Source: Candidatus Woesearchaeota archaeon
Lineage (GTDB): Archaea > Nanobdellota > Nanobdellia > Woesearchaeales > JACQSR01
Direction: 5' to 3'
Length of the DNA stretch: 64,000 nucleotides
Assembly (NCBI GenBank): GCA_016211215.1
Contig: JACQSR010000008.1
Location: 6,546-70,545 of the forward strand
This document shows, piece by piece, positions 126-29,528 of this stretch. Position 1 is the stretch's first letter. Each line of letters opens with the position of its first letter. A model generated the notes under the pieces. It made no database searches. It had not been told where the DNA came from and saw only the letters and a program-made list of their open reading frames with translations. The translations under genes were made by a program, and so were the position numbers.

Positions 126-641
126 TTATGGGCAGGTGCACAGCGCTTTTTGTGCAGTGCATGCATTATAATCTGCCTCGCAATCGTTAACATCTTCTTT
201 CAGCTCAGTTATCTCCGATTCCTTGTTTGCTATTTCCGCAGTCTTGGCCGCAAGGTCCTGCTCCATCTGAAGCATCCTTGCAATCCTGTCCGCAATCTCA
301 TTCTGGGCATCCCTTAAATCCGCCTGAAGCTTGTTTCTTTCATTCTCAACCTTTTCCTTGTCTGTTCGCAGGCTGTCGTACTTTGACTGCAGGTCAGAAG
401 CGCGCTCTTCACGAACCTCCAATTCCACGCTTGTTTCGTTGAGGATGTTCCTGTTAACCTGAAGCTCATTTGTGACTTTCTCAAGCTGGGCAAGCTTTGT
501 GCGGTAATCCTCGGTAAGGTTGTAGAACCTCATCTGGTAAAATGTGGTGAATCCGACAAAGATTATCAGGGTAACTATGATAAGAACCAGAAAGGTAAAG
601 TTCAAGTCGCGATTCATTACTGCCATTTTCCAGACCTCCAC
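126..641 (-). CDS. single-pass membrane protein with long coiled-coil and Cys-rich C-terminus
   Basis: N-terminal TM segment (FTFLVLIIVTLIIFVGFTTF), then heptad-like charged sequence, ending CEADYNACTAQKALCTCP. Overlaps the stop of the upstream VWA gene, which suggests the same operon. Confidence 0.6.
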   Translation of the reverse strand: MEVWKMAVMNRDLNFTFLVLIIVTLIIFVGFTTFYQMRFYNLTEDYRTKLAQLEKVTNELQVNRNILNETSVELEVREERASDLQSKYDSLRTDKEKVENERNKLQADLRDAQNEIADRIARMLQMEQDLAAKTAEIANKESEITELKEDVNDCEADYNACTAQKALCTCP

Positions 642-3022
642 GCCTTTAATTCCCTAAGCTTCCTGAACGCAATCTCGGTTAAAAGTATAACCATTAATGC
701 AATTAACAGCGGCCATTTGTACTCAACCGTATGCACCGTTGTTCGCCTTGAGTTCTTTTTCACGGTTTCCACTATCCTGTCAATATCCCTGGGGTCAAAT
801 ACACTTCCGCCTACAGTTGATACAATGTCTGCCATATCTGTATTCATGCCAACATAGTCATATTCCAGAGGATAGTTAACTGCAACAACCGCATCCATGA
901 CATCATGAAATCCGGTTGAGTTTGAGGTGAACTGGGCAACATAAACGCCGTTATCCACCTTGGAAAAATCAAGCCCGGAAGGCGTCTTGTCTCCGGTAAC
1001 CGTAACGGTTGTTGGGTCTCCAACGGTGGTGTCCCTTACATCTATGTCTGACTTCATTGTCCTTGATGGGTCTCCGACTGCAAAGTTCACCATCCTTATC
1101 AGCAATTTAAAGTTATCCTTTGACAGCATTGAACCTGACCATTGGGAACCATCGTCTGTAGTGTATGCAACAACATTCCCGAGTCCATACCTCCACGCCG
1201 TGATTAGGGGGTCGCCGGTGTTTGTCGAAACCAGCACTTTTGCAATCTCCTTCGGCACAACGAAATTATAGCCCGATATCATGGCCGACACTCCAATGTT
1301 TTTTGTGATGAATTCATTTGAGTTCGTAATTGTGACACTAATCTTCTTGTCGTCCAAGTCCTCCTCCACATCACCGAACAGTATTTTAAGATTTTGCTTT
1401 TCTGAAGGCCTGTAGTAAATGCCATCGCCGGCAGACGCAAGGGCCTTCATGAATGGCTCATTTGTCCTGTCACCAACGCTTACAGTATATGTTTTTATGC
1501 CGTTCTTTGCAGCTTCTCTTGCTTCCTCCAATGCATTTTCAGGATGCTGCGTCACACCATCGGATATCACTATTATGTTTTTTGAGCCCTGGGCGCTTTG
1601 GAGGGCGTAAACTGCCTTCCTTAATCCGGCATACACAAGTGTACCGCCAGTATCGCGAAGGCTTGCAATTTTTGAGACCATTTCAGGATGCTCTGATTTC
1701 ACTCCCAGCGGGCTTACCTGGAATGCATTGTGGTTGAATGCTATTACCCCGACCTTATGGGTAGCCCCTATGTCCCTGAGTATGTCAATTGCAAGGGATT
1801 TTTCAACATCTATGGAGGCGCTTGAGCCTGCGGAAAGGCCAGTGCTTTCGGAGATGTCAATGACAATCATTATGTTCATCTTGCTTTCCGTCCTCTTTTC
1901 ACCCTCGCCTACTTTGACAGGCATTAGCGATTCTATTACATTGTCCTTGTATGAGCCGCGTGCGAATGACTTATCGCCGCCAATTACCACAAGGCCGTTG
2001 CCCTCCGAAACATAATCAGATAATGTGCTGAAACGGGGCTCTATCTCTGCCGCCTCAAGGTTGTTCAGCACAACTGCAGAAAATCCCTCAATACGCTCCG
2101 GCACCTTGTCCTCTGCCTTGACATCATAAATGCTCTGAAGGTTTTTCAGGAACGGCGAGTCCTTCTTTGTGATATAGAGAAGCCTCGGCCTTGGCACAAC
2201 CTTTACTGTCTTGTAGAAAACATTGTTCTGCGGGAAGAAATCGCTGGCCGTTGCAGTTGCCGTAATCCTGTGGAACCCTTCATCAAGCTTCAGCTTGAAT
2301 TTTTTTGTCTCGGCATTCTTCTCCTTCAGGATTTGCTGGCCATCCACATCAACTGAAACCTCGTAGTCAACTTCACCCGCCTTGTTTATGTCGAGAAGGA
2401 ATTCCGTGTCAGAATCAACAATGACTTCCCTGGGACCAACAATTTTTACGCGAACATCTGAATGCACCGGCTCCATGTCCAGTGAGTTGACAGTTGAGTT
2501 CAGCATCGATGCAAACAGCATCATGTCCCCAAGTTCCCTGCCCTTGTTGCTGTTGCCGTCGCTTACAAGCAGTATGTTGTCATTTCCCTTGAGATTTGAC
2601 AGCAGGGCATCGCCCAACGGAGAGCTTTCCCCGATGCCTATGGTCCTTACCTCGGTAGGAAGCCTTCCTTCCAACCCATTTATGAGATTTTCCGAAATCG
2701 AGGAATCGAACATGGAAAATGAAGTTGAGTTGTCCACGAGTATTGTAAGAGTGGGGTCGCCTTCCACAACCGACTCTTCGGAAGTATAAGGCGAAGCAAA
2801 TGCCACTGCGAGAAGGGCGAATATTAAAATTCTGGTGATTATCATCAGCAGCTTGGGGAATTTTGTTGATTCCTCATACTCAGCCTGGTCTTTTTTTGAC
2901 TTGAATTTTACAAAGTCAGCTCGCAGAAGCAAAATGACCAATATTGCGACAGGTATTACTGCAAGCAGGGCATCCGGATGCCTGAGGCAGTAGTTTGCGT
3001 AGCACACATTTGAAAGTATCAT
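617..3022 (-). CDS. membrane protein with two von Willebrand factor A (VWA) domains, BatB-like
   Basis: Two MIDAS-like DxSxS motifs (LVDNSTSFS and VIDISESTG) with downstream SDG motifs (LLVSDGNSNKG, IIVISDGVTQ). N-terminal and C-terminal TM helices. 4-nt overlap with the upstream gene. Confidence 0.7.
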   Translation of the reverse strand: MILSNVCYANYCLRHPDALLAVIPVAILVILLLRADFVKFKSKKDQAEYEESTKFPKLLMIITRILIFALLAVAFASPYTSEESVVEGDPTLTILVDNSTSFSMFDSSISENLINGLEGRLPTEVRTIGIGESSPLGDALLSNLKGNDNILLVSDGNSNKGRELGDMMLFASMLNSTVNSLDMEPVHSDVRVKIVGPREVIVDSDTEFLLDINKAGEVDYEVSVDVDGQQILKEKNAETKKFKLKLDEGFHRITATATASDFFPQNNVFYKTVKVVPRPRLLYITKKDSPFLKNLQSIYDVKAEDKVPERIEGFSAVVLNNLEAAEIEPRFSTLSDYVSEGNGLVVIGGDKSFARGSYKDNVIESLMPVKVGEGEKRTESKMNIMIVIDISESTGLSAGSSASIDVEKSLAIDILRDIGATHKVGVIAFNHNAFQVSPLGVKSEHPEMVSKIASLRDTGGTLVYAGLRKAVYALQSAQGSKNIIVISDGVTQHPENALEEAREAAKNGIKTYTVSVGDRTNEPFMKALASAGDGIYYRPSEKQNLKILFGDVEEDLDDKKISVTITNSNEFITKNIGVSAMISGYNFVVPKEIAKVLVSTNTGDPLITAWRYGLGNVVAYTTDDGSQWSGSMLSKDNFKLLIRMVNFAVGDPSRTMKSDIDVRDTTVGDPTTVTVTGDKTPSGLDFSKVDNGVYVAQFTSNSTGFHDVMDAVVAVNYPLEYDYVGMNTDMADIVSTVGGSVFDPRDIDRIVETVKKNSRRTTVHTVEYKWPLLIALMVILLTEIAFRKLRELKAWRSGKWQ

Positions 3023-4845
3023 GCGTCACCCCTGAATTTAACTATTAGGAGCTCTGCTATAAGCAACAATGCAATAAGCGCAAGCAACGGCAGGTCAAGG
3101 CTGACCTCGCGCTCTGATGCCTCTTCAGCGGAGCCTGCAATGGATTCCTTGCCGGATTTCAGCATGTTGATTGCACCCACATTTGATTCCTTCTCGCTTA
3201 TCAGGTTGGAGGCTATTTCACGGCCTGAGTATGAATAGAATCCTGTTTCATCAAAGTAAATCCTGTTGGTCTTTAATGTTGCGCCCGGAGTGGATACCTC
3301 CTGCTCGGCTACAGGAATAATCTCGCCGGTATGCACGTTGAAATTCCCTATGTCTTCGGCGCCTGAAAGGAAGCCTATGAGCTCGGCCCAGAATATGGGG
3401 TATTCCGAGGTTGACTTGAAATCAGATTCGCGGTCAAAGATTCCGTAATAAACAGCTTTTCCGCTTCCATGCTCCTTCATCACAATGATTGGCACTTCCG
3501 AATCTGTTTTTGCAATTGCTGTAGTGCCGTTCTGCGCAGTAACATTGAAATATGGTGATTTTGTGAAGCAGCCATCGCCAAGGTTCTTGGTGAATCTGTT
3601 CACAATCTGGACGCATACCTGGGCGCTTTGCTGCTTTGCCCCCAATGGAAATGGCAGGATGTCTGACATGTCTATTGCGCCTAAGTCATTTTGGGGCATT
3701 ACAATCACGCTTGAGCCGCCCTTGGCGTATTTTGATATCAGGTTAAAATCGCCCGGAACAAGAAGATTTTTGTCAACATCATTGATTATCACGATGTCAT
3801 GGTTGAGATTTTCGGGATTTATTGTTGGGGGCCTTCTTACATCGAGCGATACGTCCGGAATTGCCTCCATTACCGCCTGCACATAGTTGTTTTCCTTCAG
3901 GTTTGAGACCAAAAGCACCTTTACCTTTTGATTGAAGGGATTGCTTATGGATACCTTGTTGTCGAGCATAAAATCGTCCTTTCTGTCCAGTATTATCTCT
4001 GACTTTCCCTGCGGCGTTGCAAATGTGAACTCCTCGACTGAATCAGGCTCGATGCTTACCGAGGCGCTGTCAAGCTTCTTTGAATCCCGCAGGATTTCTA
4101 TATCTGACTTAATTGCGTCCTTGTTGAAGTTTTTCACGGTTACTTTGGTTGTTATCTTGCTGACGCTCAGCGCTATTATGCCGACATTATCTGAATCCCC
4201 GCTCAGGTCCCTGAACTCAACAACGTGCTCTGCTGACTCAAGCCTGCTCTTTGCAACCATTATATCAGCACCTTCGGTTGGTATAAAATCACTGAGAACA
4301 ACTACCTTGCCCTTTTCGGTGCCCAAAATGTCGTTGGCCATCAGCAACGCGTCACCAATGTTGCTTGTGGTTGCCTTGGGGGAAATCTTCCCAAGAACGG
4401 AAAGGGCATCGCTCTTGCTTCCCTTGGTGAGCAGTGCGGAAGGAACATTTTCAGCAAGTATTATGCTTATCTTCCCGTCAAGGCTTTCCTTTGCCCTGGA
4501 AAGCGCAGTGTCAAACCTTGTCCCGATGCCGTATGAGGCCTGCATCGATGCGCTTCCGTCTATTATTATTACTGTGTTTTCGGATGAGGTTGTGAAAGGC
4601 ATGATTATGTAAGGGGATGCTATGGCAAGGGCAAGCCCGGCCAATGCAAGAAACTGAAGATAAAATATTATGTTCTGCACGAATCTTCTGAAGAATGTCT
4701 GCCTCTTGGTAAGCTTCTTCTCCTCCATGATGAACATCAATGAAGGAATAACCTTTTCTATGGGCTTTGGTTTGATGAGATAGATTATTATCAGGGGTAT
4801 CAATGAAAGCAGCGCATACAATCCCCACATGTTTGTGAACTGCAT
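3019..4845 (-). CDS. BatA-like membrane protein (aerotolerance-regulator N-terminal TM domain plus VWA domain)
   Basis: N-terminus MQFTNMWGLYALLSLIPLIIIYLIKPKP matches the BatA_N pattern. VWA MIDAS motif IIIDGSASM and VVVLSDFIPTEG. C-terminal TM LPLLALIALLLIAELLIV. Confidence 0.7.
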   Translation of the reverse strand: MQFTNMWGLYALLSLIPLIIIYLIKPKPIEKVIPSLMFIMEEKKLTKRQTFFRRFVQNIIFYLQFLALAGLALAIASPYIIMPFTTSSENTVIIIDGSASMQASYGIGTRFDTALSRAKESLDGKISIILAENVPSALLTKGSKSDALSVLGKISPKATTSNIGDALLMANDILGTEKGKVVVLSDFIPTEGADIMVAKSRLESAEHVVEFRDLSGDSDNVGIIALSVSKITTKVTVKNFNKDAIKSDIEILRDSKKLDSASVSIEPDSVEEFTFATPQGKSEIILDRKDDFMLDNKVSISNPFNQKVKVLLVSNLKENNYVQAVMEAIPDVSLDVRRPPTINPENLNHDIVIINDVDKNLLVPGDFNLISKYAKGGSSVIVMPQNDLGAIDMSDILPFPLGAKQQSAQVCVQIVNRFTKNLGDGCFTKSPYFNVTAQNGTTAIAKTDSEVPIIVMKEHGSGKAVYYGIFDRESDFKSTSEYPIFWAELIGFLSGAEDIGNFNVHTGEIIPVAEQEVSTPGATLKTNRIYFDETGFYSYSGREIASNLISEKESNVGAINMLKSGKESIAGSAEEASEREVSLDLPLLALIALLLIAELLIVKFRGDA

Positions 4846-7303: not shown

Positions 7304-7645
7304 ATGAAATTCACGCTTAGCAGGAAGGATATCATTGCACTCAACCAGTGCTTTGACAACGGCCACGTGCATAATGAGGCAAGCCTCGATTTTGCCCTGG
7401 ATTATGCAAGGAGGACTGAAAACTGGACAAAGGCTCTGGCATGGCTCACGAGGGCCATACTGCTCGACCATGTTTTTGAGGAGGGGAACAAAAGAACGGC
7501 AGCTTTGCTGATAGTCACATATGCGGAATTTGAGGGGCATGACACATATGACGATAAGGTACTTAAATTGATTAAGGAAGTTATAATAAAGAAGACCACC
7601 AGTATAACCAGGATAGAGGAGATGATTAAGGATGCCATCAAATAA
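7304..7645 (+). CDS. doc: Doc/Fic-family toxin (death-on-curing type)
   Basis: HVFEEGNKRTA matches the Doc-type variant of the Fic motif, HxFx(D/E)(A/G)NKR. 113 aa, a typical Doc size. TATA-like TTTAAATA about 25 nt upstream. Confidence 0.8.
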   Translation: MKFTLSRKDIIALNQCFDNGHVHNEASLDFALDYARRTENWTKALAWLTRAILLDHVFEEGNKRTAALLIVTYAEFEGHDTYDDKVLKLIKEVIIKKTTSITRIEEMIKDAIK

Positions 7646-7874
7646 GTTTGTGAAGACTGCGAAGAGGATTGCTGAAAGGGACAAGGCTCTTTTTGATGAG
7701 CTTTTGGAGTTCGAGAAGACCAAGAAAATCAGGACTAAAACAAGGCTTAACTTTACTATTGACAAAGGAGTTGCTTCAAGGTTTAAGAGGCTCTGCAGGG
7801 AAAAGGGCTACAACATGAGCGCAAGGGTAGAGCAGGCTATCAACAAAATGATAAAGAAAGGCGAGGCTGCTTAA
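7632..7874 (+). CDS. ribbon-helix-helix (CopG-like) protein, putative Doc antitoxin
   Basis: C-terminal RLNFTIDKGVASRFKRLCREKGYNMSARVEQAINKMI fits a strand-helix-helix layout. Overlaps the doc stop by 14 nt. Confidence 0.55.
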   Translation: MPSNKFVKTAKRIAERDKALFDELLEFEKTKKIRTKTRLNFTIDKGVASRFKRLCREKGYNMSARVEQAINKMIKKGEAA

Positions 7875-9120: not shown

Positions 9121-10020
9121 TTACTTAACAATTCCCCGAACCATTTGAGGGTATTGAATGTCCTTATAGGTGCAGTCAATATCTGCCCTGTCGAGTAGGG
9201 CGCCATGGTATAATTGCCTTGCAAAAGAGATGCTCTTCAGATATTGATTGTAATAGAAGTTATCGGGTAGGCTGCCAGGGGGTACAATCTTAGTTGGCTC
9301 TCCTTTCATAAAAGTGTCTTCCCGTTTTTTTAATTCCCTGTGCACCCAGAACTTAAACATATCATCATAATCCTCGCTTATTGCCGGAACCATAATAAAC
9401 TCCCTGTACAAGAAACGCACGTTCATTTCAGTAACGCGGTTTTCATTCGAGAAAAGACCATAATCCTTTGCAACATCCCTAAATGCCCACAAGGTTAGCC
9501 CCTCTTCAGCAAGGCGGTTAGTGGGTATATTCAGCTCGAATTCGTTCCCTTCCCTGCTTAGTAAGTATACCCTCCTTTCCTGAGGCTCTTTATGCAGATC
9601 TTCTTCAGCTACTCCCTTATGCACATCATAAAATTCTTCCAATCCAAAGATATGGAGATTCTCGAGTCTTCTAGCCACATCATCGGAGAGTATGTCTTCC
9701 ATTTTGATTTTTTCCGCCTCGGCCTTTTTTGCGGGGTCTAACAATGGTGACTCGCGGACCAGCAAAAGAGGGTTATTCGGGAGATATACAGCACCCTCTA
9801 CAACAAACCCCCCGGTGTCGCACAAGGAATCCTCCTTCGCGGACTTCATTCTTGCATATGCCAAATCCCTCAAAGAAATCATGCTTGACGCTCCAGCCCG
9901 CTCCAACTGCCCAATCGCCTCAAACAAGGGAGCCTTAGCCATCATAATCTTTCCCAAGCCCTCAACTACACCCTCCAATAGAACTTCTGAAGTTTTGTAT
10001 GGGAGCGAATACCTGTCCAT
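9121..10020 (-). CDS. hypothetical protein
   Basis: Long ORF with no competing frame. No motif recognised. Confidence 0.5.
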   Translation of the reverse strand: MDRYSLPYKTSEVLLEGVVEGLGKIMMAKAPLFEAIGQLERAGASSMISLRDLAYARMKSAKEDSLCDTGGFVVEGAVYLPNNPLLLVRESPLLDPAKKAEAEKIKMEDILSDDVARRLENLHIFGLEEFYDVHKGVAEEDLHKEPQERRVYLLSREGNEFELNIPTNRLAEEGLTLWAFRDVAKDYGLFSNENRVTEMNVRFLYREFIMVPAISEDYDDMFKFWVHRELKKREDTFMKGEPTKIVPPGSLPDNFYYNQYLKSISFARQLYHGALLDRADIDCTYKDIQYPQMVRGIVK

Positions 10021-10075
10021 TAGAAGAGGGATTGGCGGAGAATTTAATTAGTTTTGTATACTGCGGCATACAACC

Positions 10076-10119
10076 AATCACTTCAACCCAGATTAAAGTT
10101 ATGGCTATATATTTAAATA
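10076..10119. repeat. left copy of an imperfect direct repeat (relic promoter/5' end related to 12800..12843)
   Basis: AATCACTTCAACCCAGATTAAAGTTATGGCTATATATTTAAATA versus the copy at 12800: 38/44 identical by hand alignment. Weaker similarity continues to about 10185, including GTGAT..TATG at the same spacing from the TATA box. Confidence 0.7.
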
Positions 10120-10206
10120 GGCTTGTCTTCAGGATGTTTGGAGTGTGATGAGTATGAATGAGTACAAGAAATCTACTGCGATTGGGAACATTCTGCAATA
10201 GTCCAC

Positions 10207-10779
10207 CTAGATATCTTTAAATGACATAATATTGCCCGGGCCAATAAAATCCAGCAGCAGTTTGTTTTCCTTCAATTTTCCAAAGCTGTCTGCTTTTAGC
10301 CTTTTCCTGTCAAACTCAATGCTGTAGGCTTTAATTCCATCTGCTATCTTTCTTGACAAAAAATCGCCATCACTTTTAAGCTGACTGACGAGGCTGACAA
10401 CCATTATGTCGTTTGTGATACCTTTGCTGTATTTCTCCAGTTCTTCAAGAATCGACTTTGTTTTAAATATGAATCCCAACACCGCTTTCCTATATTCCAT
10501 TTCGTCTGCGATGTCAATCCTCAGCCGGAACTGGCCAATCTCCTCCGTGTGGAATTTGAACTGCAGATGGGGGTATGAATGCTTTGCAGGTGGCATGTGG
10601 TGCTCGATTGCATAATCTCGATGGACCGTTTTTGGGTTTTCAAACCTTGTGGTAATCCTAAATGAGTATTCCTCTTCCAAAATATTAAGGCTTGGCCTCT
10701 CATCTATAACAACCCTGACTCCCGATTTGTCATAAATCGGCTTGTTGAAATACGTTTTTATAAAATGGAATTCTTTCAT
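10207..10779 (-). CDS. hypothetical protein (downstream partner of the VapB-like fusion gene)
   Basis: ATGA overlap with 10776..11498. AT-rich. No recognised motif and no PIN-like acidic pattern. Confidence 0.55.
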   Translation of the reverse strand: MKEFHFIKTYFNKPIYDKSGVRVVIDERPSLNILEEEYSFRITTRFENPKTVHRDYAIEHHMPPAKHSYPHLQFKFHTEEIGQFRLRIDIADEMEYRKAVLGFIFKTKSILEELEKYSKGITNDIMVVSLVSQLKSDGDFLSRKIADGIKAYSIEFDRKRLKADSFGKLKENKLLLDFIGPGNIMSFKDI

Positions 10780-11498
10780 CTTGTTCTGAATAATTTTCCA
10801 TATTCATTAATCAGCATTTGGGCTTTAGATGCCTGAACTTTGATTGCCCATTCTTTTGGGGGTTTCTCCTCCTCGTTCAATCTAAGCGGGGTTTCTATAT
10901 CATCCCTGAAAGAATCTTCGCTTAGGTTGTAAGAATAGTACAACTTTCTCCAACTTGCAATATTATCGTAGTCTTCAAGTTTTCCTGCATAGAATTTTGC
11001 CCTGAACTCCCTTTCCAAAGCAAGAGCAACTGCTTTTAAGTAGATAGATAAGAAGAAACTGGAATAATGCTTATGGGGGTTATCAACTCCAAAGAATTCA
11101 GAAGGGTTCAGCACGCTTTTCTTCAAGAAGACTTTTTTTATCTTCAAGTCAAGCACAAAATCTGACTGGTTTGACTTAACATCATTGTATTCGTATTCAA
11201 ATCCGATTTCCTCTCCGTATGTATAATCATCAAAAAACTCAGTTTTTCTTTTGTACTTGATTGCATTTGCATTCTCATCTCCAATTGAGGCAGTTTTTTC
11301 GCTTAATGTTGCCAAAATTACATCATCAAATGTTTCATTCGGCCCCTTCTTTCTTTTTAGGGCATCCCAAGTCCTAATGCCTACCTTAATTGTTTTGGTT
11401 CTTGGGGGCGATATAACCCTCGCAGTATTAATTTCATTGCTCCTAATCATTGCTTCACCTTTGTATACTGGGTATACTAAGTGTAGTGGTGTACTCAT
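10776..11498 (-). CDS. protein with N-terminal VapB/DUF217-like antitoxin motif fused to an unknown ~170-aa domain
   Basis: TKTIKVGIRTWDALKRKKGPNETFDDVILATL resembles the archaeal PF02697 pattern (ktItv..e.ye.Lk.lK...eSFsdvI..Ll). The rest is unrecognised. Confidence 0.5.
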   Translation of the reverse strand: MSTPLHLVYPVYKGEAMIRSNEINTARVISPPRTKTIKVGIRTWDALKRKKGPNETFDDVILATLSEKTASIGDENANAIKYKRKTEFFDDYTYGEEIGFEYEYNDVKSNQSDFVLDLKIKKVFLKKSVLNPSEFFGVDNPHKHYSSFFLSIYLKAVALALEREFRAKFYAGKLEDYDNIASWRKLYYSYNLSEDSFRDDIETPLRLNEEEKPPKEWAIKVQASKAQMLINEYGKLFRTR

Positions 11499-11532
11499 AT
11501 TTAAACTTTACTATTGATTTATAGATAAAATG

Positions 11533-11790
11533 TCAACTTACAGTAAAACCTATCTCTTCTTGATCGAAGTTCCCTGCCTTGTCAGTTGCCCTGATGAGGA
11601 GGTTATGCTGCCCAGAAGTGAAGCTTTTGTATTTCTTACTTGAGTAGCCATATTCATTGCAGTCTCTGCATAATGGGCTCAAACTACTCCTTGGGATAAT
11701 TGTGTCATTATACTCAATATCAACCTCTTCAGAAACCGTAATGTTGAAGTAAATCTTGCTGCTTTCATAACCATAGCAGCAAATAGAGAG
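11533..11790 (-). pseudogene. 5'-truncated remnant of an Ig-like surface protein gene (C-terminal ~85 codons, no start codon)
   Basis: Minus-strand frame open from a TAG at ~11791 to a TGA at 11535-11533: PILSICCYGYESSKIYFNITVSEEVDIEYNDTIIPRSSLSPLCRDCNEYGYSSKKYKSFTSGQHNLLIRATDKAGNFDQEEIGFTVS*. No ATG in it. ATDKAGN is the D.AGN motif seen at the ends of the Ig-like repeats in 61814..64000. Confidence 0.4.
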
Positions 11791-11810
11791 AATCGGCTAT
11801 AAGTATTTTA

Positions 11811-11830
11811 CCCCACAGCAAGCTGTGGGG
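11811..11830 (-). terminator. perfect 9-bp palindrome hairpin downstream of 11848..12072
   Basis: CCCCACAGC-AA-GCTGTGGGG, 18 nt past the stop codon of the 74-aa gene. No clear oligo-T follows, so terminator function is uncertain. Confidence 0.3.
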
Positions 11831-11847
11831 AATTCTCTAAGTTAAAT

Positions 11848-12072
11848 TTATTTAATTTTATATTCACCTATCGGAAGTATAAATGCCCTAGTGAATCTTT
11901 CAGAAGCAAAACCCAGATCTTCAAAATTGCCCCCCGATTTATTAAATCTATAAGGAACTTCAACTAGTCTAAATCCAGTTACAATATCAGTTATATCTCT
12001 AGTGCATTCACGGATGGTCTTTCCAAACATGTTCCTGTCTTTAATCCAAAGCTTCCAATCAGGCTTCTTCAT
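11848..12072 (-). CDS. hypothetical small protein downstream of the wHTH-nucleotidyltransferase gene
   Basis: 14-nt overlap with 12059..12649. No motif recognised and no HEPN Rx4-6H motif. Confidence 0.45.
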   Translation of the reverse strand: MKKPDWKLWIKDRNMFGKTIRECTRDITDIVTGFRLVEVPYRFNKSGGNFEDLGFASERFTRAFILPIGEYKIK

Positions 12073-12649
12073 CTTGTAACTGCCTCCACCATTCCATCCC
12101 TACAAGAATTACCTTGTCTTTCTTAAGCTTTTTGAAAAATTCTTTAGTGGGATTATGAAATGATTCTTTGAATTCTTTATAGCCGAGATAAACTGAGTTT
12201 AACTGCGTGCTTGTTTTCATGCTGATTTTTTTTGCAGTATTTTCAATCTCTTTAGAATTTTCAATTTTCTGAAAAACCAATAAGATATCAACATCCGAGT
12301 TTTTTGTATAAGTACCATTAGCATAAGAACCAAAAATAACAGCTATCACGGGCTTATCCTTTAATTCCCTTAAGAAATCGTTTACAGATAATTTTACTTT
12401 TGCTGGAAGCCTTTCAAATCTGGAATGTTCAACGGCGCCAAGTGCTGAACTAAGCATTTCTTTTGAGTAATCTAAGAAATAGTTAATCTGGTTACCAGCC
12501 TTTTTCTGTTTAATTAACTTGTTTATCTTTTTAAGTCCGTAATCTATGGAGGGCATTCCTAATTTGAGTTGCTTGGAAAGCCCCCTCTTATGAATCCCGG
12601 GATTAAGGTAAATTTGTTCCAAGATCCTAATTTCAGTTTTGTCATACAT
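12059..12649 (-). CDS. winged-HTH plus minimal nucleotidyltransferase (Pol-beta superfamily, MNT-like) protein
   Basis: N-terminal HTH-like IHKRGLSKQLKLGMPSIDYGLKKI. NTase signature VIFGSYANGTYTKNSDVDILLVF (GS...G....SDxD). Confidence 0.75.
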   Translation of the reverse strand: MYDKTEIRILEQIYLNPGIHKRGLSKQLKLGMPSIDYGLKKINKLIKQKKAGNQINYFLDYSKEMLSSALGAVEHSRFERLPAKVKLSVNDFLRELKDKPVIAVIFGSYANGTYTKNSDVDILLVFQKIENSKEIENTAKKISMKTSTQLNSVYLGYKEFKESFHNPTKEFFKKLKKDKVILVGMEWWRQLQDEEA

Positions 12650-12650
12650 T

Positions 12651-12692
12651 GTATATCGATTGCCATATAAAGTATATCGATAGTATATAAAG
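12651..12692 (-). promoter_or_regulatory. tandem 21-bp duplicated TATA/operator-like unit directly upstream of the wHTH-NTase start
   Basis: The minus strand reads CTTTATATACTATCGATATA / CTTTATATGGCAATCGATATA followed by CAATG (start). GTATATCGAT occurs at 12651-12660 and 12672-12681, spaced 21 bp. Each unit contains an ATCGAT palindrome. Confidence 0.35.
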
Positions 12693-12799
12693 CTTTGCTT
12701 TTCATTCCCGCCTTAAAGTGATGTAAGCTATTCTACGCCCCAAGCCCTGCGAATAGCAGTTAAGATTTGTGCCTCTAGATTCTTGTTCCTGATACCCCG

Positions 12800-12843
12800 A
12801 ATCACTTCGACCCAAACTGAAGTTATGGACATATATTTAAATA
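12800..12843. repeat. right copy of the imperfect direct repeat; functional promoter region of the beta-propeller gene
   Basis: AATCACTTCGACCCAAACTGAAGTTATGGACATATATTTAAATA. TTTAAATA at 12836-12843 lies 22 nt upstream of the GTG at 12866. Confidence 0.7.
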
Positions 12844-12865
12844 TGGCGGGCTTACGGAGCATCAG

Positions 12866-14974
12866 GTGATAATTATGTATAAACACAACAAGATTATCTT
12901 TGCGGTTATAGCGGTTTCATTACTTCTCATAATAGGGTGCGCCAAGGAGCCTGTAAAACCTGAAGAGCCACAGCAATCATTAGAGGCAACTCAGGAGCTA
13001 AAGAAGTTTAATTCTGCCGAGGATGTCAAAGACTTCCTGCAGAAGAGTTCCCAGCAGCAGCCGATTTACAGGAGAGGGGGAATAATTGCTGACATGATGG
13101 TGGAGACTGCAGCAGTTTCGAAGGAGGCAGCTCCAAGCGCAGCACCAGCAGCCGAGTATTCAACAACAAACGTACAGGTGGAAGGGGTTGATGAGGCAGA
13201 TTTTGTAAAGAATGACGGAAAGTATATATATGTTCTTGCGCAGAATAAATTGGTCATTGTCAATGCTTTCCCCGCTGAAGATGCAAAGAAGATTTCCACA
13301 ACAGAAATAAAAGGGCATCCAAGGGACATGTTTGTGAACGGGGATACATTAGTTGTATTTACGGATGATTACGATGAGATTTACACAATTTCCGATTATG
13401 ACTTCCTGCCGAGGCCAACCCAGACGCAAATGACGCACGCAATAATTTATGATATTTCCGACAGAAGCAGCCCTGAGAAGGAAAAAGATTACACTATTGA
13501 TGGTTATTACTTCCAGTCGAGGATGATAGGCGATTATGTGTACCTGATTTCAAAGAAGGATGCCTACTATGGTCCGGGGCCTATAATGCCAATATTAAGG
13601 GAGGCATCAACAAAGATAGTTCCCGATGTTTACTACTTTGACAACCCGGAGCTTAATTATGTATTCCACACAATAACTTCAATAAACCTGAAGAACGAGG
13701 AGACAAAGGCAAAGTCATTCCTGATGGGATATTCCAACACGGTTTATGTGTCGCAGGACAACATCTACATTGCATACCAAAAAAATCTGCCGTACTCTTA
13801 CTATCAGTCTTACAACTCAGACAGGTTCTTCAAGGTTGTTGTGCCTCTGCTGCCGGATGAAGTCCAGGACAAAATCGGGAAGATAAAGGCGAAAGACCTG
13901 GAACCATACGCAGAATGGTCGGAGATTTCCGACGCCCTTGAGGAAATGTACAACAAAATGGATGAAGCGGAAAAAGAAGAGCTGAGCGAGGAAATTACGG
14001 AGGCTATAGAAGAATACGAGATAAAGCTTGAAGTGGAGAGAAGAAAGACAGTAATCCACAAGATTGGCATTAGCAATGGAGACATAGAATACAAGGAAAA
14101 GGGCGAAGTTCCGGGATACCTATTAAACCAGTTTTCGCTTGACGAGTTTGACAATCACCTTAGAGTTGCAACCACGACAGAGCTTTATGTAAGGAACAAG
14201 GCTGAAATGTACAACAATGTTTATGTGCTCGACGAGGATATGGACAAAGTTGGAGAGATAGGGGCGATTGCAAGGGACGAAAGGATATACTCCACAAGGT
14301 TTTTGGGCGACAGGCTTTACATGGTTACATTCAAAAGAGTTGACCCCTTGTTTGTGATTGACCTGAGCAATCCCGAGAATCCAAAGGTTCTTGGCGAGCT
14401 TAAGATTCCGGGATTTTCAGATTACCTGCACCCATACGATGAAGACCACATAATAGGAATAGGAAAGGAAACAGAGGGAAATGAATGGGGCGGAGTTTCA
14501 ATTAAAGGCGTAAAGGTTGCATTATTTGACGTCTCTGATGTTGAGAATCCAAAGCAGGTTGACAGTATTGAAATAGGGGAGCGCGGGACAGACTCAGAAG
14601 CATTAAGAGACCACAAGGCATTCCTGTTCGACAAGAGAAACGACCTTGTTGTGATTCCGATCAGGGAGGTTAAGGGTGAGGTGTATGACGAAAGAGGATA
14701 CTATCGTCAAAGAATATGGCAGGGCGCCTATGTTCTTGAGGTAAGCCCGGAAAAGGGAGTAAAAGTCAGGGGCAAGATTTCCCACGGCGAGGAGGATGAA
14801 AGATACTACTGGAATTCCCCAAGCGCAGTCAGAAGGTCATTGTACATGGATGATGTCCTCTACACAGTATCGGCAAGGAAGATAATGATGAACGGCATTG
14901 AAGATGGCTCTGACATAAACGAGGTTAAGCTGCCCTTTGAGGAGGAAAAGTACTACCAGTACGGGTGGTATTAG
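12866..14974 (+). CDS. secreted beta-propeller domain protein (PF09826 Beta_propel family), lipoprotein-like signal
   Basis: YSTTNVQVEGVDEADFVKNDGKYIYV is the hallmark N-terminal motif of this family. Signal/lipobox-like LLLIIGCAKEP. The start could be the GTG at 12866 or the ATG at 12875. Confidence 0.85.
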   Translation: MIIMYKHNKIIFAVIAVSLLLIIGCAKEPVKPEEPQQSLEATQELKKFNSAEDVKDFLQKSSQQQPIYRRGGIIADMMVETAAVSKEAAPSAAPAAEYSTTNVQVEGVDEADFVKNDGKYIYVLAQNKLVIVNAFPAEDAKKISTTEIKGHPRDMFVNGDTLVVFTDDYDEIYTISDYDFLPRPTQTQMTHAIIYDISDRSSPEKEKDYTIDGYYFQSRMIGDYVYLISKKDAYYGPGPIMPILREASTKIVPDVYYFDNPELNYVFHTITSINLKNEETKAKSFLMGYSNTVYVSQDNIYIAYQKNLPYSYYQSYNSDRFFKVVVPLLPDEVQDKIGKIKAKDLEPYAEWSEISDALEEMYNKMDEAEKEELSEEITEAIEEYEIKLEVERRKTVIHKIGISNGDIEYKEKGEVPGYLLNQFSLDEFDNHLRVATTTELYVRNKAEMYNNVYVLDEDMDKVGEIGAIARDERIYSTRFLGDRLYMVTFKRVDPLFVIDLSNPENPKVLGELKIPGFSDYLHPYDEDHIIGIGKETEGNEWGGVSIKGVKVALFDVSDVENPKQVDSIEIGERGTDSEALRDHKAFLFDKRNDLVVIPIREVKGEVYDERGYYRQRIWQGAYVLEVSPEKGVKVRGKISHGEEDERYYWNSPSAVRRSLYMDDVLYTVSARKIMMNGIEDGSDINEVKLPFEEEKYYQYGWY

Positions 14975-18242: not shown

Positions 18243-18923
18243 ATGTCCGATATGAAGTTGGAATATAGAATTGCGAAGACTCATGTTGGGAAAGGGTTAA
18301 TTGAGACACCTGACGTAGTTGTGCAAGTGGCAAATCCTCATTGGAGTTATGCAAGACATTTACCTGCAGATTGGGATTTATCTAAGATTGATAGAAGGAC
18401 TCATGTTACTTCTGATTTGCTGACAAATCTTGAAAATGCTCCAGAAGGTCCGGAAATGGATTTAAGTCCATTAAGAAATGACCAAAGGGCATCTGGAATT
18501 GTTTACGGTAGCAATCCAATACAAAATATGTACAATTTAATCGGAGAATATGCCCAAAGATTTCCAGAGCATGAATTTTTTGGAAAATGGGGGGGTTATC
18601 AACCATATAAAGAGGGGAAAAGATTTGTTTTTTATGTTGAAGATGAAAATGATGCAAATTTAATGGTGCAAAGGCTTAATGAAGTTTCTAAAACAATGAG
18701 AATTCCAATTTCAGCAAATCATCAGTATGGTTTGACACAATATCAAGATTTTGTTGAGATTAATGAAAGATTAAGAAGTACTGTTAGAAACAAAGAAGGA
18801 TTCAAACAGCTTCTTGGGGAATTAGAAGGATTCCCACATTTCTTCCATGAATTCTTTTTAACAAATGACTTCTCAGATCCTCAAGCCCCTTCTAAAGATA
18901 GCCGCAACTCAGATTTAATATAA
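18243..18923 (+). CDS. hypothetical protein (AT-rich orphan)
   Basis: Clean ORF with no motif recognised. Its stop overlaps the left copy of the 37/38-nt repeat. Confidence 0.5.
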   Translation: MSDMKLEYRIAKTHVGKGLIETPDVVVQVANPHWSYARHLPADWDLSKIDRRTHVTSDLLTNLENAPEGPEMDLSPLRNDQRASGIVYGSNPIQNMYNLIGEYAQRFPEHEFFGKWGGYQPYKEGKRFVFYVEDENDANLMVQRLNEVSKTMRIPISANHQYGLTQYQDFVEINERLRSTVRNKEGFKQLLGELEGFPHFFHEFFLTNDFSDPQAPSKDSRNSDLI

Positions 18924-18954
18924 CCCGCTACTCAATAAACTTCCTCATCCTGTC
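18917..18954. repeat. left copy of direct repeat duplicating the 3' end of gene 19789..20586
   Basis: AATATAACCCGCTACTCAATAAACTTCCTCATCCTGTC versus 19779..19815 AATATAACCCCTACTCAATAAACTTCCTCATCCTGTC, with a single 1-nt indel. The minus strand of this copy still reads ..ALDRMRKFIE*, as at the real gene end. Confidence 0.85.
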
Positions 18955-19102
18955 TAACGCCCTTACGAAGTAAAGTGCAACGGGGTCAAGGAGCGCGACG
19001 AAGAATTTGGAAAAAAAGTCCCCGTCAGTAAATATGTAAATACCACTAAATGGTGGTAAATAATAGTAAAGTTTATATAGTTCGGATTATTGCAAGGAGA
19101 AT

Positions 19103-19693
19103 GTGAACCATTTAGAATACTCTCAACAGGTTAAAGCAGAAATAGAAAACTCTCCTTTGTATAGCCTGTTAAGGAACCATTTTATAGGTCAAAAAAGATT
19201 TTCTGAGTCTTTGGGAGAAGGAGATCACTTCAGACATCTGAAAACTAAAAGATTAGACTCAGGATTGTGGATTGCTATAAAAGAGCCAAAACAAGAGCAA
19301 GAAAATCCAGTCCCCTTAGAAGCACATTGTCGAGCGACATACGCTTTCGCTGAATCTTATCATCCGGCGGGTCACAAAAGTATTCAGGATATATTAAAAA
19401 ATCCGGAAAGGTATTATTTGGTAACTAGTGCTTTTTGTATAGGCGTAAAATATAGACAACAACATTTGGGTCTTTGGAATTATGCTGCTTTGGTAGAGGA
19501 TTTAGCATCTTTGAGCATTCCTATTAAACCAGCAGTAAAATCGGGTGATAAGGGAGAGGTTAAAATAGGTGATAAGACTATTCACATTTATTTTGATATA
19601 GACTATTTACTAGAACAGCTTGTAGAAGATATGGGTGGGGAAGATAAGATTCCGAATTGTATGGTTGATGATAAAATGATGATTTTTGAGTAA
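19103..19693 (+). CDS. hypothetical protein (orphan between the two repeat copies)
   Basis: GTG start in the track. No motif recognised. AT-rich. Confidence 0.5.
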   Translation: MNHLEYSQQVKAEIENSPLYSLLRNHFIGQKRFSESLGEGDHFRHLKTKRLDSGLWIAIKEPKQEQENPVPLEAHCRATYAFAESYHPAGHKSIQDILKNPERYYLVTSAFCIGVKYRQQHLGLWNYAALVEDLASLSIPIKPAVKSGDKGEVKIGDKTIHIYFDIDYLLEQLVEDMGGEDKIPNCMVDDKMMIFE

Positions 19694-26570: not shown

Positions 26571-27260
26571 TTGGATATTATATCCAATAAAGGGGTGGTT
26601 AGCATAGGAAAGGCAGATTCGATTGCCGACATCATAGATGCCGAGATAAGGAAACTGAAGAAAAGGGGCGAAAAGAAAAAAGCCGAAAAAAAACCAGCCG
26701 AAGGAGTAAAACTGCAGCCCAAAAAGCAGGAGTCCATAAACGACATCGTGAAGAAGCTGTCGAAAACTAAGCCGAAATCATTAACCGAAGATGAAAAAAA
26801 GGAGCTTGATATCTTAAAAGATATTTTTACCATGGTTAAATACCTCGACAAGGTTGAGGATAAAGACGCGTTCATAGCCAACCTCTACAGCCTAAGTCCG
26901 CGCGGGCAAAGCACGCCTTATGCAGGGGCAATGCCTCAGTCCCAATATGCGGACTACGGAAAGATATGGGGACATCTGGGGAAAGACACGGTTGTAAGGA
27001 TGTACGACGGGGATTTTTCTGCCGGCAGCTCTTCCGCGGGAACGACAAAGCAGGAGCTTGTTTCCTACCAGACGTTTGAGAAGAGCATGAAGAGCATAAA
27101 ATACTTCACACCTGGAGGCCACAGCTCCATAATGCTTGACGCGTTTTACGGGAACGTGCCGATGCACGGCGTTGATTCAAAGGAGTGGGAGAAGATGAAG
27201 CTTTACATGATGGTTGACAACGGCGTAATGTTCAAGCTGATGATGGGGACGGGGATTTAG
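26571..27260 (+). CDS. hypothetical Lys-rich protein (start uncertain)
   Basis: The track ORF starts at 26349 but its first ~60 codons overlap the opposite-strand gene 25944..26528. In-frame TTG at 26571 and GTG at 26595 are more plausible starts. Confidence 0.4.
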   Translation: MDIISNKGVVSIGKADSIADIIDAEIRKLKKRGEKKKAEKKPAEGVKLQPKKQESINDIVKKLSKTKPKSLTEDEKKELDILKDIFTMVKYLDKVEDKDAFIANLYSLSPRGQSTPYAGAMPQSQYADYGKIWGHLGKDTVVRMYDGDFSAGSSSAGTTKQELVSYQTFEKSMKSIKYFTPGGHSSIMLDAFYGNVPMHGVDSKEWEKMKLYMMVDNGVMFKLMMGTGI

Positions 27261-27361
27261 AATTGATTATTGCGCCATTTGAATCAGAATCCAATGTTAA
27301 ATGAAGTATTGTTTCAGTTGATGCTTGTTAAATGCAATAATTTTTTGGGATTAACGACGAA

Positions 27362-27374
27362 AGGGCGAGAAAAC
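27362..27374. repeat. left arm of 13-nt inverted repeat flanking the 27.4-29.1 kb cassette
   Basis: AGGGCGAGAAAAC. Its exact reverse complement GTTTTCTCGCCCT occurs at 29135-29147, with a 12-nt version GGTTTTCTCGCC at 29167-29178. Confidence 0.6.
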
Positions 27375-27448
27375 CTAATGACGACTCTAAAACCGAAAAA
27401 GTTATATTCTACAGCATATATTTGACTCAAGGGGGCGGGAAAACTAAG

Positions 27449-28531
27449 ATGAAAAAGATCTTCATGGTCACTTCGTTGATTTTCTTGTTAAGTAATAATC
27501 TAGTATTTGCCGATCCAGCCGAATATTTATTTAAGAACGAATCTTTGGGGCAAACAGATATGATTGTAGAAGTTAATGATCAAAACTATACAATTTATAA
27601 TATTGATAGGAGTCAAGAAGGTAACCTTTTACTTATAGATTCTAATGGATTTCTACCATCTGATGGAATAATACAAAAGAGTATCGTTACTTATTATACT
27701 TATTTATACATAAATAACCATGAAGAAGAAATTGAATCACACTTCCACATAACCGCCAATAAATTAGACAAAGAAGCAAAATCAAACTATCAAAAGATAC
27801 TCGATACTTTCAAATCTTTATCAGCAGTATGTGTAGATATTCCTCCTTTCCAGCTATTGCAAGTTTGTGTTAAACCTAGTGATAAATTGAGTATAATGAA
27901 AGTTACAATTGTAGTTGTCAAATTACTTCCAGACTGGAATATCGCACTTAATAATTACAAAAATCTTGGGGGCAATATTTTATATTTTACTGATAAATCA
28001 GATACAATGAGATATGGTTTTACCGAAGATCTATATAGTGATATTATTGCAACTTACAGTTTTCTTACTGTTGTCGAGGAAGTGACTGGTGAAAAATTTA
28101 CTGAGAATGATATTATTAAGCCGGAGAAGATTGCGAATGAAGTCGGCAAAAGTACAGAACTTGAATTTAACAGCATCAAACTTAGGTTATTCACATTAAA
28201 AGACTCTGAGAAAAGTAAGTTTGATCAGGTAAAATCAAAGATTAAAGAAATAAGTATCCTGATGAAGGATATTGCTAGAATAAATGGGGATTTGGACGAT
28301 ATTAAAACTAAGAACACCGGTTTGAAGGGTGAAATCGCACTGATAAGCTTAAATGATCAAAAATTGAGGTCAGATATAGACGATTTAGACAACATTTTAC
28401 TAAAAGCTGAGGAATTGAGAAAACAAGCCGAAAATTCATATACTACCCAACAAGATATTTACCAAAAAGAACGTTGGGACTCTAAGGCTATTGATTATGT
28501 TATGGGTTTAGTTAGGTCAATGGTTTACTAA
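27449..28531 (+). CDS. secreted protein with C-terminal coiled-coil (AT-rich orphan)
   Basis: Signal peptide MKKIFMVTSLIFLLSNNLVFA, preceded by an AAGGGGG SD-like sequence. The track starts at the TTG at 27422. No family recognised. Confidence 0.5.
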   Translation: MKKIFMVTSLIFLLSNNLVFADPAEYLFKNESLGQTDMIVEVNDQNYTIYNIDRSQEGNLLLIDSNGFLPSDGIIQKSIVTYYTYLYINNHEEEIESHFHITANKLDKEAKSNYQKILDTFKSLSAVCVDIPPFQLLQVCVKPSDKLSIMKVTIVVVKLLPDWNIALNNYKNLGGNILYFTDKSDTMRYGFTEDLYSDIIATYSFLTVVEEVTGEKFTENDIIKPEKIANEVGKSTELEFNSIKLRLFTLKDSEKSKFDQVKSKIKEISILMKDIARINGDLDDIKTKNTGLKGEIALISLNDQKLRSDIDDLDNILLKAEELRKQAENSYTTQQDIYQKERWDSKAIDYVMGLVRSMVY

Positions 28532-28532
28532 A

Positions 28533-29135
28533 ATGAAAGATTTCAACAAGAATAAGATTATTGAACAAATCTTACTTTCCCTAGAGAGGTTCCAGAAAGA
28601 ACTAGGGTCTGTATCCGGTTCAGAAAGATTTTTCTCCTCAATAACTCTATTTGACCAGATGGAAAAAGGAGTATTAGCAAATCTTCTATTTGAACTTTGG
28701 GAAAGGAATATTCAATCTGCTCTAAACAAATATTGCAGTATGATAGATAAAATAAAAGAAAGTCGTGGAAACATCTTAAAAGTAAATCCAAAATATAATC
28801 AATTCAAAAGAGAAGGTGAGGTTATAAAAAGGGAACAAGATATTACAATTAAAGATAAATTAGAAAAATATAAATCATTATTTGAAAAGACCACTATTGA
28901 AATAAACTATTTAAAAGATAATAATACAAGCTTAATTAGTGAAGGTAAAAGAAGTTATTTGAAAATATACCTCCTTTGTGCAACTTTAATAACTGCTTTT
29001 TATTCAACTGTTGTAGGATTTTATTTTAGTGGTGATGTATCTGCTATAAATAAGAATTTAGTGTTGGTGATTATAATATGGGCGGCTATATTATTCTTTC
29101 TATGGAATAAACTGTTTGAGTGGATTAACAAGTAG
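28533..29135 (+). CDS. hypothetical protein with two C-terminal TM helices
   Basis: Starts 1 nt after the upstream stop. YLLCATLITAFYSTVVGFYF and LVLVIIIWAAILFFLW are TM-like. Confidence 0.5.
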   Translation: MKDFNKNKIIEQILLSLERFQKELGSVSGSERFFSSITLFDQMEKGVLANLLFELWERNIQSALNKYCSMIDKIKESRGNILKVNPKYNQFKREGEVIKREQDITIKDKLEKYKSLFEKTTIEINYLKDNNTSLISEGKRSYLKIYLLCATLITAFYSTVVGFYFSGDVSAINKNLVLVIIIWAAILFFLWNKLFEWINK

Positions 29136-29178
29136 TTTTCTCGCCCTCCCACCACTACGACTAAACGGTTTTCTCGCC
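29135..29178. repeat. right arm(s) of inverted repeat
   Basis: GTTTTCTCGCCCT (29135-29147, starting in the stop codon of 28533..29135) and GGTTTTCTCGCC (29167-29178). Confidence 0.6.
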
Positions 29179-29300
29179 TTGATTCTTGTTCTTGATGTGT
29201 CGCTTTGTTCCTTTGATGGAACTTAGCCCAAAAATTACTTTTCGGACGAAATTTTCCCACACTTTGTAGGGGAAAAGAGTATAACAAGTATCCCTGGGTT

Positions 29301-29528
29301 TTAAAGCAATTTCAGGAATTCCTCTTTCTTCAAACCCGACTGGCGTATAATCTCCAGGAGCGTGCCCCTGTCTACTTCGTCATGCAACGGAACAACTGTT
29401 ACCTTTGTGCCTTCCGAAGTTTCTTTCCTCAGAATAACGTGACTCCCTTTCTGTCTTGCGGCAACAAACCCGTATTTTGTTAGAATTTTGATGACATCCT
29501 TACCGGAAAGTCTAGGCAGCTTTTGCAT
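29301..29528 (-). CDS. hicA: HicA-family mRNA interferase toxin
   Basis: LSGKDVIKILTKYGFVAARQKGSHVILRK is the YcfA/HicA signature (G.H). 75 aa. Confidence 0.85.
   Translation of the reverse strand: MQKLPRLSGKDVIKILTKYGFVAARQKGSHVILRKETSEGTKVTVVPLHDEVDRGTLLEIIRQSGLKKEEFLKLL

Follow-up and report, generated by a model that had tools for sequence, protein, structure and literature searches.

The window analysed here is a stretch of 64,000 nt from contig JACQSR010000008.1 of a Candidatus Woesearchaeota archaeon (assembly GCA_016211215.1, positions 6,546 to 70,545 of the forward strand), and all positions given below refer to it. It carries a beta-propeller gene of the PF09826 family and, about 2.7 kb upstream, a second and decayed copy of this gene's control region and first codons. 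The two copies are direct repeats enclosing an interval of low GC content (Table 1). An old rearrangement at the very start of the beta-propeller gene probably accounts for both, each repeat marking one of its ends, with layers of acquired DNA in between.

The two repeats at the beta-propeller locus

The best conserved parts of the two copies, at 10076-10119 and 12800-12843, are identical at 38 of 44 positions (86%), with an E-value of 1.3e-5 when one is searched against the whole 64-kb window by blastn-short. No third copy was found in the window by this search, and an exact search of the window allowing up to three mismatches recovered the query copy alone. Extended without gaps, the pair reaches 67 nt at 76% identity. 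Both copies terminate in ATATATTTAAATA, an identical run of 13 nt which is the longest within the repeat and corresponds to the TATA box, and a GTGAT..TATG start region follows the end of the repeat after 25 nt on the left and 22 nt on the right. These repeats had already been described in an earlier reading of the sequence alone (hereafter the sequence-only reading) and are fully borne out, as is the observation that the left copy leads into nothing but a short open reading frame (ORF) of 18 codons.

The same reading had also proposed that a similarity of about 70% continues over the first ten or so codons. Taken by themselves, the two window copies do not support this, as the local alignment score downstream of the TATA box (17) is not significantly higher than that of shuffled sequences (13.9 ± 2.2, with 27 of 300 shuffles as good). 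The similarity is recovered by way of a sister lineage, which is represented by the contigs L089 and L090 (p299 and the 228 nt upstream of it) and L091 to L094 (p821-p240-p190). L089 and L091 share an identical overlap of 52 nt and can be joined, which gives p299, the left copy, p190 and p240 in this order, followed by an uninterrupted p821 gene of 821 codons. The left copy of L089 and the right copy of the window are 87% identical over some 131 aligned nucleotides (local score 108, z 39). After the TATA box, the two share 12 identical nucleotides followed by the pattern GGTGATA.TTATG.ATAA.CACAA..TTGCG, and this part alone scores 37-39 (z 13), which none of 300 shuffles equalled. Within-genome pairs of promoters that share the same operator, taken from 10 other genomes, score just 12-20. 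Because the score for L089 and the window exceeds this range, the left copy is a true duplicate of the beta-propeller 5' end and not merely a similar promoter.

Two other accounts of the repeats were rejected. Chance similarity is ruled out by the E-value of 1e-5 together with scores of 27 and 24 bits in a position weight matrix search, in which the next match reaches 3.8 bits. A general promoter motif of the genome is ruled out by the occurrence of only two copies in 64 kb.

The duplicated span amounts to approximately 110 nt (10068-10183 and 12792-12907) and takes in an operator, TATA box and leader as well as the beginning of the gene with its start codon and some ten codons. The homology tapers off gradually and has no sharp identical core. 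To the left of 10068, no homology that could represent a duplicated piece of p299 or p262, the upstream neighbours, was found.

Table 1. Features of the beta-propeller locus in order of their position in the window
Feature	Position	Strand	Description
p299	9121-10020	-	left neighbour; fast-evolving, no family; absent from syntenic L095
Left copy	10068-10183	+	duplicate of operator, TATA box and leader together with the start and ~10 opening codons, aimed at the p190 3' end; from alignments with L089 and the right copy
Left operator palindrome	10077-10102	.	ATCACTTCAA-CCCAGA-TTAAAGTTAT; 27.4 bits, top match of the window
Left TATA-like box	10107-10119	+	ATATATTTAAATA; same as in the right copy and L089
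18-codon relic ORF	10145-10201	+	decayed beta-propeller 5' end
p190	10207-10779	-	partner gene of p240; no family
p240	10776-11498	-	N-terminal VapB/RHH-like segment and C-terminal domain, the latter confidently modelled
Remnant	11533-11763	-	3'-terminal 77 codons of p821 (821 aa, secreted, MopE/Big_13), which is intact in L091
Younger layer	11764-12791	-	hairpin, p74, p196 and the region upstream of p196; right edge nominal; lowest-GC part; absent from L091
Hairpin	11813-11832		-15.4 kcal/mol, z -2.4
p74	11848-12072	-	partner of p196
p196	12059-12649	-	winged helix-turn-helix (wHTH) and nucleotidyltransferase domains
Right copy	12792-12907	+	operator 12801-12826, TATA box 12831-12843, GGTGA ribosome-binding site, ATG 12875; live copy of the beta-propeller gene
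PF09826 beta-propeller gene	12875-14974	+	699 aa, secreted lipoprotein-like; Pfam E 4e-167; exact 699-aa product on record

A palindromic operator and its proposed regulon

The 44-nt core contains a palindrome of 26 bp with the consensus ATAACTTCAA-N6-TTGAAGTTAT, directly adjoining the TATA box, which the sequence-only reading had missed. A position weight matrix built from other genomes only identifies exactly two sites in the window, at 10077 (27.4 bits) and 12801 (23.9 bits), and the third-best match has 3.8 bits. When the consensus was searched at a threshold of at least 17 of 20 positions, 47 unique sites were obtained in 2.1 Mb of fetched loci, where less than one would be expected by chance. 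Thirty-six of these are located no more than 260 nt, and usually 55-110 nt, upstream of a PF09826 start codon, with a TATA box 3-6 nt downstream of the site. Another five precede genes for ArsR/HTH_20 proteins of about 200 aa with two C-terminal hydrophobic, putatively membrane-spanning helices (ArsR-TM), and four precede genes for small Cys-rich secreted proteins encoded between such a regulator and the beta-propeller gene. At a score of at least 15 of 20, the operator is present in 60 of 133 unique PF09826 upstream regions as compared to 2.5% of random windows. The architecture of the right copy recurs in orthologues, 55-110 nt upstream of the start, and in a more distant Woesearchaeota metagenome-assembled genome (L095) the intergenic region has the same sequence, AAAACTTCAATCCAAATAGAAGTTATGGAC.., followed by the TATA box. 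The operator occurs in Woesearchaeota, Nanoarchaeia and Methanoperedens/Methanosarcinales, and Methanomicrobiales probably carry a diverged form. In Methanoregula and other members of the latter group (L059-L083, L150-L172), a related conserved block, (A/T)TTC..TTTTTTTCGCAGTTAACGCCAGATT.AT, lies approximately 55-85 nt from the PF09826 start and may be this diverged operator.

The 44-nt core is therefore best explained as the predicted functional operator and TATA box of a conserved regulon, and its high identity between the two copies would be due to this conserved element rather than to its being the least decayed part of a neutral scar. In about 30 loci, the beta-propeller gene is immediately preceded by a gene for an ArsR/HTH_20 regulator, and five promoters of this regulator bear the palindrome themselves, from which we infer that the palindrome is bound by this putatively membrane-anchored protein. 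Fusions between a helix-turn-helix (HTH) domain and a beta-propeller also exist, and in related Woesearchaeota two or three promoters with the operator stand in tandem, 650-1300 nt apart, in front of the regulator, the Cys-rich protein and the beta-propeller gene. The predicted arrangement resembles that of ArsR/SmtB repressors and of archaeal regulators bound to the membrane (Sulfolobus ArnR, for instance) in the winged-helix ArsR/HTH_20 fold, the dyad operator abutting the TATA box and the B recognition element, the operator on the regulator's own promoter, which would allow autoregulation, and the anchoring in the membrane. It differs in that neither the operator ATAACTTCAA-N6-TTGAAGTTAT nor its targets (PF09826 and the Cys-rich lipoproteins) were found in the literature searched, in that some members are fused to a beta-propeller, and in that binding is predicted here. 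The literature search yielded no relevant description of PF09826, of a membrane-anchored ArsR protein with a beta-propeller or of the operator sequence.

The left copy has retained these elements to a different extent. Five nucleotides separate the end of the relic ORF from the stop codon of p190, with which it converges. Compared to L089 over the 15 codons from the ATG, the relic displays seven non-synonymous and two synonymous codon changes (counted by hand on the alignment) and thus shows no sign of purifying selection, so that it is not considered a peptide gene. The operator half-sites and the TATA box differ from those of L089 at 2 of 33 positions, the other positions upstream of the ATG at 13 of 46 (Fisher p 0.019), and both left operators, that of the window and that of L089, score as high as the live one. 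Operator and TATA box are thus intact in the left copy, whereas the coding relic next to them decays, and the uneven distribution of changes gives a thin hint that operator and promoter have been retained.

As a possibility of its own, the left copy might be a functioning orphan promoter under the same regulator, giving rise to a short transcript that would run antisense to p190 (and p240) at the 3' end, or acting as a decoy for the regulator. Its direction into the convergent p190, the score of its operator, as high as that of the right one, and the uneven distribution of differences would agree with this. On the other hand, the sample is small, the left copy as a whole (12.5%) has diverged no less than neutral sites (10%), and Rfam identified no known RNA in 9800-13100, so that we regard such a function as doubtful. 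It is compatible with the rearrangement and not strictly a rival to it. Similarly tentative is the combined proposal that the palindrome would be the operator of an undescribed envelope regulon spanning several archaeal phyla (ArsR-type regulator, Cys-rich lipoproteins, PF09826) and the left copy a retained orphan promoter running antisense into p190-p240. If true, the orphan promoter would tie the accessory, toxin-antitoxin-like p190-p240 operon to the envelope regulon. The palindrome provides a concrete candidate operator for a widespread and uncharacterised pair, the membrane-anchored ArsR-type regulator and the secreted PF09826 beta-propeller, and the orphan copy is a natural substrate for tests of regulator binding and promoter activity. 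Operator and regulon are the part most worth following up.

Composition, genes and age of the interval

The interval between the copies has a GC content of 0.33-0.40 compared to a window mean of 0.449 (standard deviation 0.039, 1-kb windows), and all of its genes are on the minus strand, both in line with what had been read from the sequence before. It is one of three low-GC islands of the window; the others are located at 18.0-19.7 kb and 27.0-29.5 kb. The GC content at third codon positions rises from p74 (0.28) and p196 (0.35) to p240 (0.37), p190 (0.49) and the flanking genes (0.50-0.54). No integrase or transposase is present among the ORFs of the islet or was identified by Pfam, PADLOC, NCBIfam and PHROG scans of its proteins, which agrees with the earlier statement that an integrase is missing. 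Likewise, there is no excisionase in or beside the islet, no tRNA gene in the 64 kb and no inverted repeat at the islet ends.

The gene content was largely as previously described, with several corrections. The VapB-like N-terminus of p240 is weak (E 0.009; 17.2 bits, below the Pfam cut-off of 27.9), although two homologues, P0179 (33.1 bits) and P0150 (29.2 bits), exceed this cut-off. The true start of p240 is probably Met17 at 11450. Its AlphaFold model is confident over residues 81-240, and a search with the modelled structure gave no PDB match at E ≤0.001. Its partner p190, which had been counted into the same VapB-like module, had no match in Pfam, PADLOC, NCBIfam or PHROGs, and its single-sequence structure model is unusable (pLDDT, the predicted local distance difference test score, 39). 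The p240 family has about 50 members, none of them found in viral contigs; p190 has only about 30 representative homologues, always downstream of a p240 homologue. As an adjacent two-gene unit, the pair occurs in three unrelated DPANN contexts: between hydrogenase and thermosome genes in L175, between the PfkB and STT3 genes in L179, and in L182 alongside a Fic gene and an rve transposase. With 18 synonymous and 6 non-synonymous changes in p190 compared to L091, the p240-p190 pair is under purifying selection. The third element of this block, described before as a gene remnant, is the 3' end of p821. An 11-mer, TTTGTATACTG, was observed close to the promoters of p299 and p240, within GTATAC-containing dyads at 10053-10075, in the gap between p299 and the left copy, where it is conserved in L089, and at 11460-11477, between a TATA-like box and Met17 of p240. 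They could serve as operator of p240, which is RHH-like, but a match of this quality is expected by chance (E 3.1).

In the remaining part of the interval, p196 matches the Pfam family NTP_transf_2 with 41 bits, above the cut-off, and PDC-M05A of PADLOC, a family of defence candidates, with an E-value of 5.9e-15 (residues 2-186 of 196 on profile positions 11-192 of 201), whereas its score against the NCBIfam MntA equivalog (31.9 bits) remains below the cut-off of 60. Its partner p74 matched no family in Pfam, PADLOC, NCBIfam or PHROG and is not considered a HEPN protein, as it lacks histidine. At 12639-12680, a tandem direct repeat of 21 nt (TTGTCATACATTGTATATCGA / TTGCCATATAAAGTATATCGA, 81% identical) extends over the p196 start codon and promoter region and may be an autoregulatory site for the wHTH domain of p196.

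The sister lineage allows the components to be arranged by age. Its divergence from the window amounts to about 10%, at fourfold as well as at third-codon positions, and the p299 proteins are 86.7% identical. As it has the same left copy in a better preserved state, the alignments place the duplication before the split of the two lineages, which is at the level of species. By blastn, the window and L091 are homologous from 10195 to 11763 at 95.3% identity, and the homology stops abruptly at 11763. The remnant is still 97% identical to p821 of L091 (five synonymous and two non-synonymous changes), so that the truncation of p821 must be recent. Comparison of the aligned loci thus shows two or more layers, an older one of p821-p240-p190 and a younger one, a nucleotidyltransferase/p74 module which is confined to the window lineage and took the place of 2.2 kb at the 5' end of p821. 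The gradient in third-position GC content across the islet agrees with this order of arrival.

The view of the interval as one single cassette of 2.7 kb therefore had to be abandoned in favour of at least two layers of different age. Its foreign origin, in contrast, is supported by composition and by accessory modules that are seen in unrelated contexts elsewhere. The interval is neither recent nor currently mobile, since the left copy and p190-p240 are also fixed in a lineage that differs by about 10% at fourfold sites. Measured by the usual signs of an island, deviant composition and absence from relatives, the GC content is low and the islet is absent from the distant L095, while the older layer is present in the closest relative for which DNA is available. 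No variant without the islet was seen among the same-strain Logan contigs (L001-L006, L088), which are identical to the window. One of them, L002, mismatches the window at its positions 1-18 (window 10711-10728), which is probably an assembly tip and too short to interpret.

A comparison with relatives lacking the islet had been expected to reveal a single repeat. In part this was the case: in L095, whose beta-propeller protein is 61% identical in amino acid sequence, p262 and the beta-propeller gene are divergently oriented and 100 nt apart, with one operator between them. Further downstream, homologues of p565 and p448 follow as in the window, which thus has 3.8 kb in place of the 100 nt of L095. 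L095 serves as a proxy for the empty site but is too distant to be a true one, and the closer L089/L091 lineage retains the left copy and the older block. In total, the search of metagenome and genome contigs for the beta-propeller gene yielded 160 loci, all with at most 64% amino acid identity except L040 (93%), which lacks the upstream DNA; no homologues of p299 were found in genome contigs. In L040, a Fic module occupies the position between the beta-propeller gene and p565, where the window has 81 nt. It consists, at 1460-3728, of a Fic-domain protein of 416 aa (motif HPFSDGNSRTTR, HTH-like N-terminal region) and a partner of 253 aa. The neighbourhood is thus a hot spot for accessory modules.

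Origin of the repeats and comparison with known systems

The explanation that we regard as fairly probable, taken as a whole, is an old rearrangement at the 5' extremity of the PF09826 gene, of which each repeat marks one end. The left copy has stayed with the ancestral upstream neighbours p299 and p262 and the right copy on the intact gene. The block p821-p240-p190 arrived first, before the window and L089/L091 lineages parted, and the low-GC nucleotidyltransferase/p74 module later overwrote the 5' 2.2 kb of p821. The foreign DNA may have recombined into the locus at a short stretch that it shared with the beta-propeller 5' region, either by a Campbell-type single crossover of a circular molecule or by homology-facilitated illegitimate recombination. 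Either route would duplicate the homologous stretch and thereby produce direct repeats without an integrase, and the repeats may have differed from the start. Of the insertion or recombination scar proposed by the sequence-only reading, the decaying duplicate is real, while the mechanism is inferred.

Several observations weigh against this explanation. Neither the right-hand junction nor a true empty site could be retrieved from any close relative; P0002 and P0013, which are p299 and the beta-propeller N-terminus of the sister lineage, have no DNA record, and L040 breaks inside the gene. At 61% amino acid identity, the adjacency of p262 and the beta-propeller gene in L095 may be derived rather than ancestral. 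A homologue of the regulator is absent from the 64-kb window, and its binding to the palindrome is a prediction. In addition, nearly all differences between the two left copies fall on the window branch. Such lopsided branch lengths are odd; they could be due to selection on the L089 copy, to gene conversion in the sister lineage or to faster decay in the window.

The same final structure would result if the whole beta-propeller gene had first been duplicated in tandem and the incoming p821-p240-p190 block had then replaced the upstream paralogue except for its promoter and about ten codons, with no target duplication at insertion. The locus is prone to replacement, as seen from the nucleotidyltransferase module that overwrote p821 in a similar manner and from the Fic module of L040. 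However, this course requires two events and a breakpoint at codon 10-12 or so, no other beta-propeller paralogue or coding remnant was detected in the window by tblastn, and tandem PF09826 paralogues were not present in any of the approximately 170 fetched loci, so that we consider it unlikely. More improbable still is that the repeats are the attL and attR sites of an integrative element which used the operator region as attachment site and later lost its integrase. Foreign low-GC DNA between direct repeats of tens of nucleotides is typical of such elements, and the best conserved core of 44 nt is of the appropriate order of size. Against this stand the lack of an integrase, excisionase or tRNA gene in or beside the islet, the extent of the homology and its gradual fading, an interior composed of unrelated modules and the failure to find p240 relatives in viral contigs.

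Least of all do we favour that the left copy was an independent promoter of another member of the regulon, such as a lost gene for a regulator or Cys-rich protein, resembling the right copy through operator and TATA box only. The tandem operator promoters of related Woesearchaeota offer a precedent, and when only the two window copies are compared, what follows the TATA box shows no significant similarity, but the left copy of L089 matches the right copy of the window at positions without function, with a score well beyond that of the ten real regulon pairs. We find this very hard to reconcile with independent promoters.

With Campbell-type or homology-facilitated integration, the locus shares direct repeats of a common stretch which flank the insert, can differ from the outset and require no integrase. 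It is different in that no circular donor or donor allele was found, in that the repeat consists of a promoter and about ten codons, one copy of which keeps the gene alive, and in that the insert has since been rebuilt. Archaeal integrase islands of the SSV or pTN3 type likewise have foreign low-GC DNA between attL and attR repeats of tens of nucleotides, whereas this locus has neither an integrase nor a tRNA as target, its repeats are imperfect and its content is a mosaic of small modules. An insertion sequence or transposon is not indicated, as there is neither a transposase nor terminal inverted repeats and the duplication is about 110 nt long. The content itself resembles toxin-antitoxin and defence islets (VapB antitoxins, MntA/HepT of type VII, PDC-M05) in its small two-gene operons, patchy distribution, varied contexts and low GC content, and in the RHH/VapB-like N-terminus of p240 and the wHTH-nucleotidyltransferase p196. 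It departs from VapBC systems, as no PIN partner was detected, p190 belongs to no family and p240 has a large extra domain without structural match, and from MntA/HepT, as no HEPN partner with the Rx4-6H motif is present and p74 matches no family and has no histidine. The likeness to PDC-M05 is partial, the first component being matched by p196 and the second not found, with no PADLOC match for p74.

As a rearrangement scar, the locus represents an ordinary type of event which is unusually readable. It illustrates that small accessory modules can accumulate and overwrite each other at one spot of a reduced DPANN genome without a dedicated recombinase, and that duplication of the control region can keep a gene alive when DNA is inserted into its first codons.

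A further observation concerns the BatA/VWA genes p608 and p801 (617-4845), which in the window are located upstream of the beta-propeller gene and inverted relative to it. In many Woesearchaeota (L007, L024, L030, L032, L041, L096, L120, L123, L130), these genes follow the beta-propeller gene at a distance of 3-6 kb and have the same orientation, which points to an old rearrangement with a breakpoint near the beta-propeller 5' end. Both genes are part of the MoxR/VWA cluster, which has been discussed as a putative secretion system (PMC5898192).

Elsewhere in the window, 2 kb from the islet, at 7304-7874, a small Fic/DOC-like protein (113 aa, Pfam E 5e-5) is encoded overlapping an RHH/CcdA-like protein of 80 aa, and the two look like a toxin-antitoxin pair of the Doc/Phd type. 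The second low-GC island (18243-19693; GC about 0.36, 0.24-0.27 at third codon positions) carries ORFs of 226 and 196 aa without family match between p448 and p265, and is absent from L040, where these two genes adjoin. The third, at 27000-29500, is the most extreme (GC 0.30-0.33), with ORFs of 369 and 200 aa without confident family, and together with 40.5-43 kb it displays the largest tetranucleotide deviation in the window.

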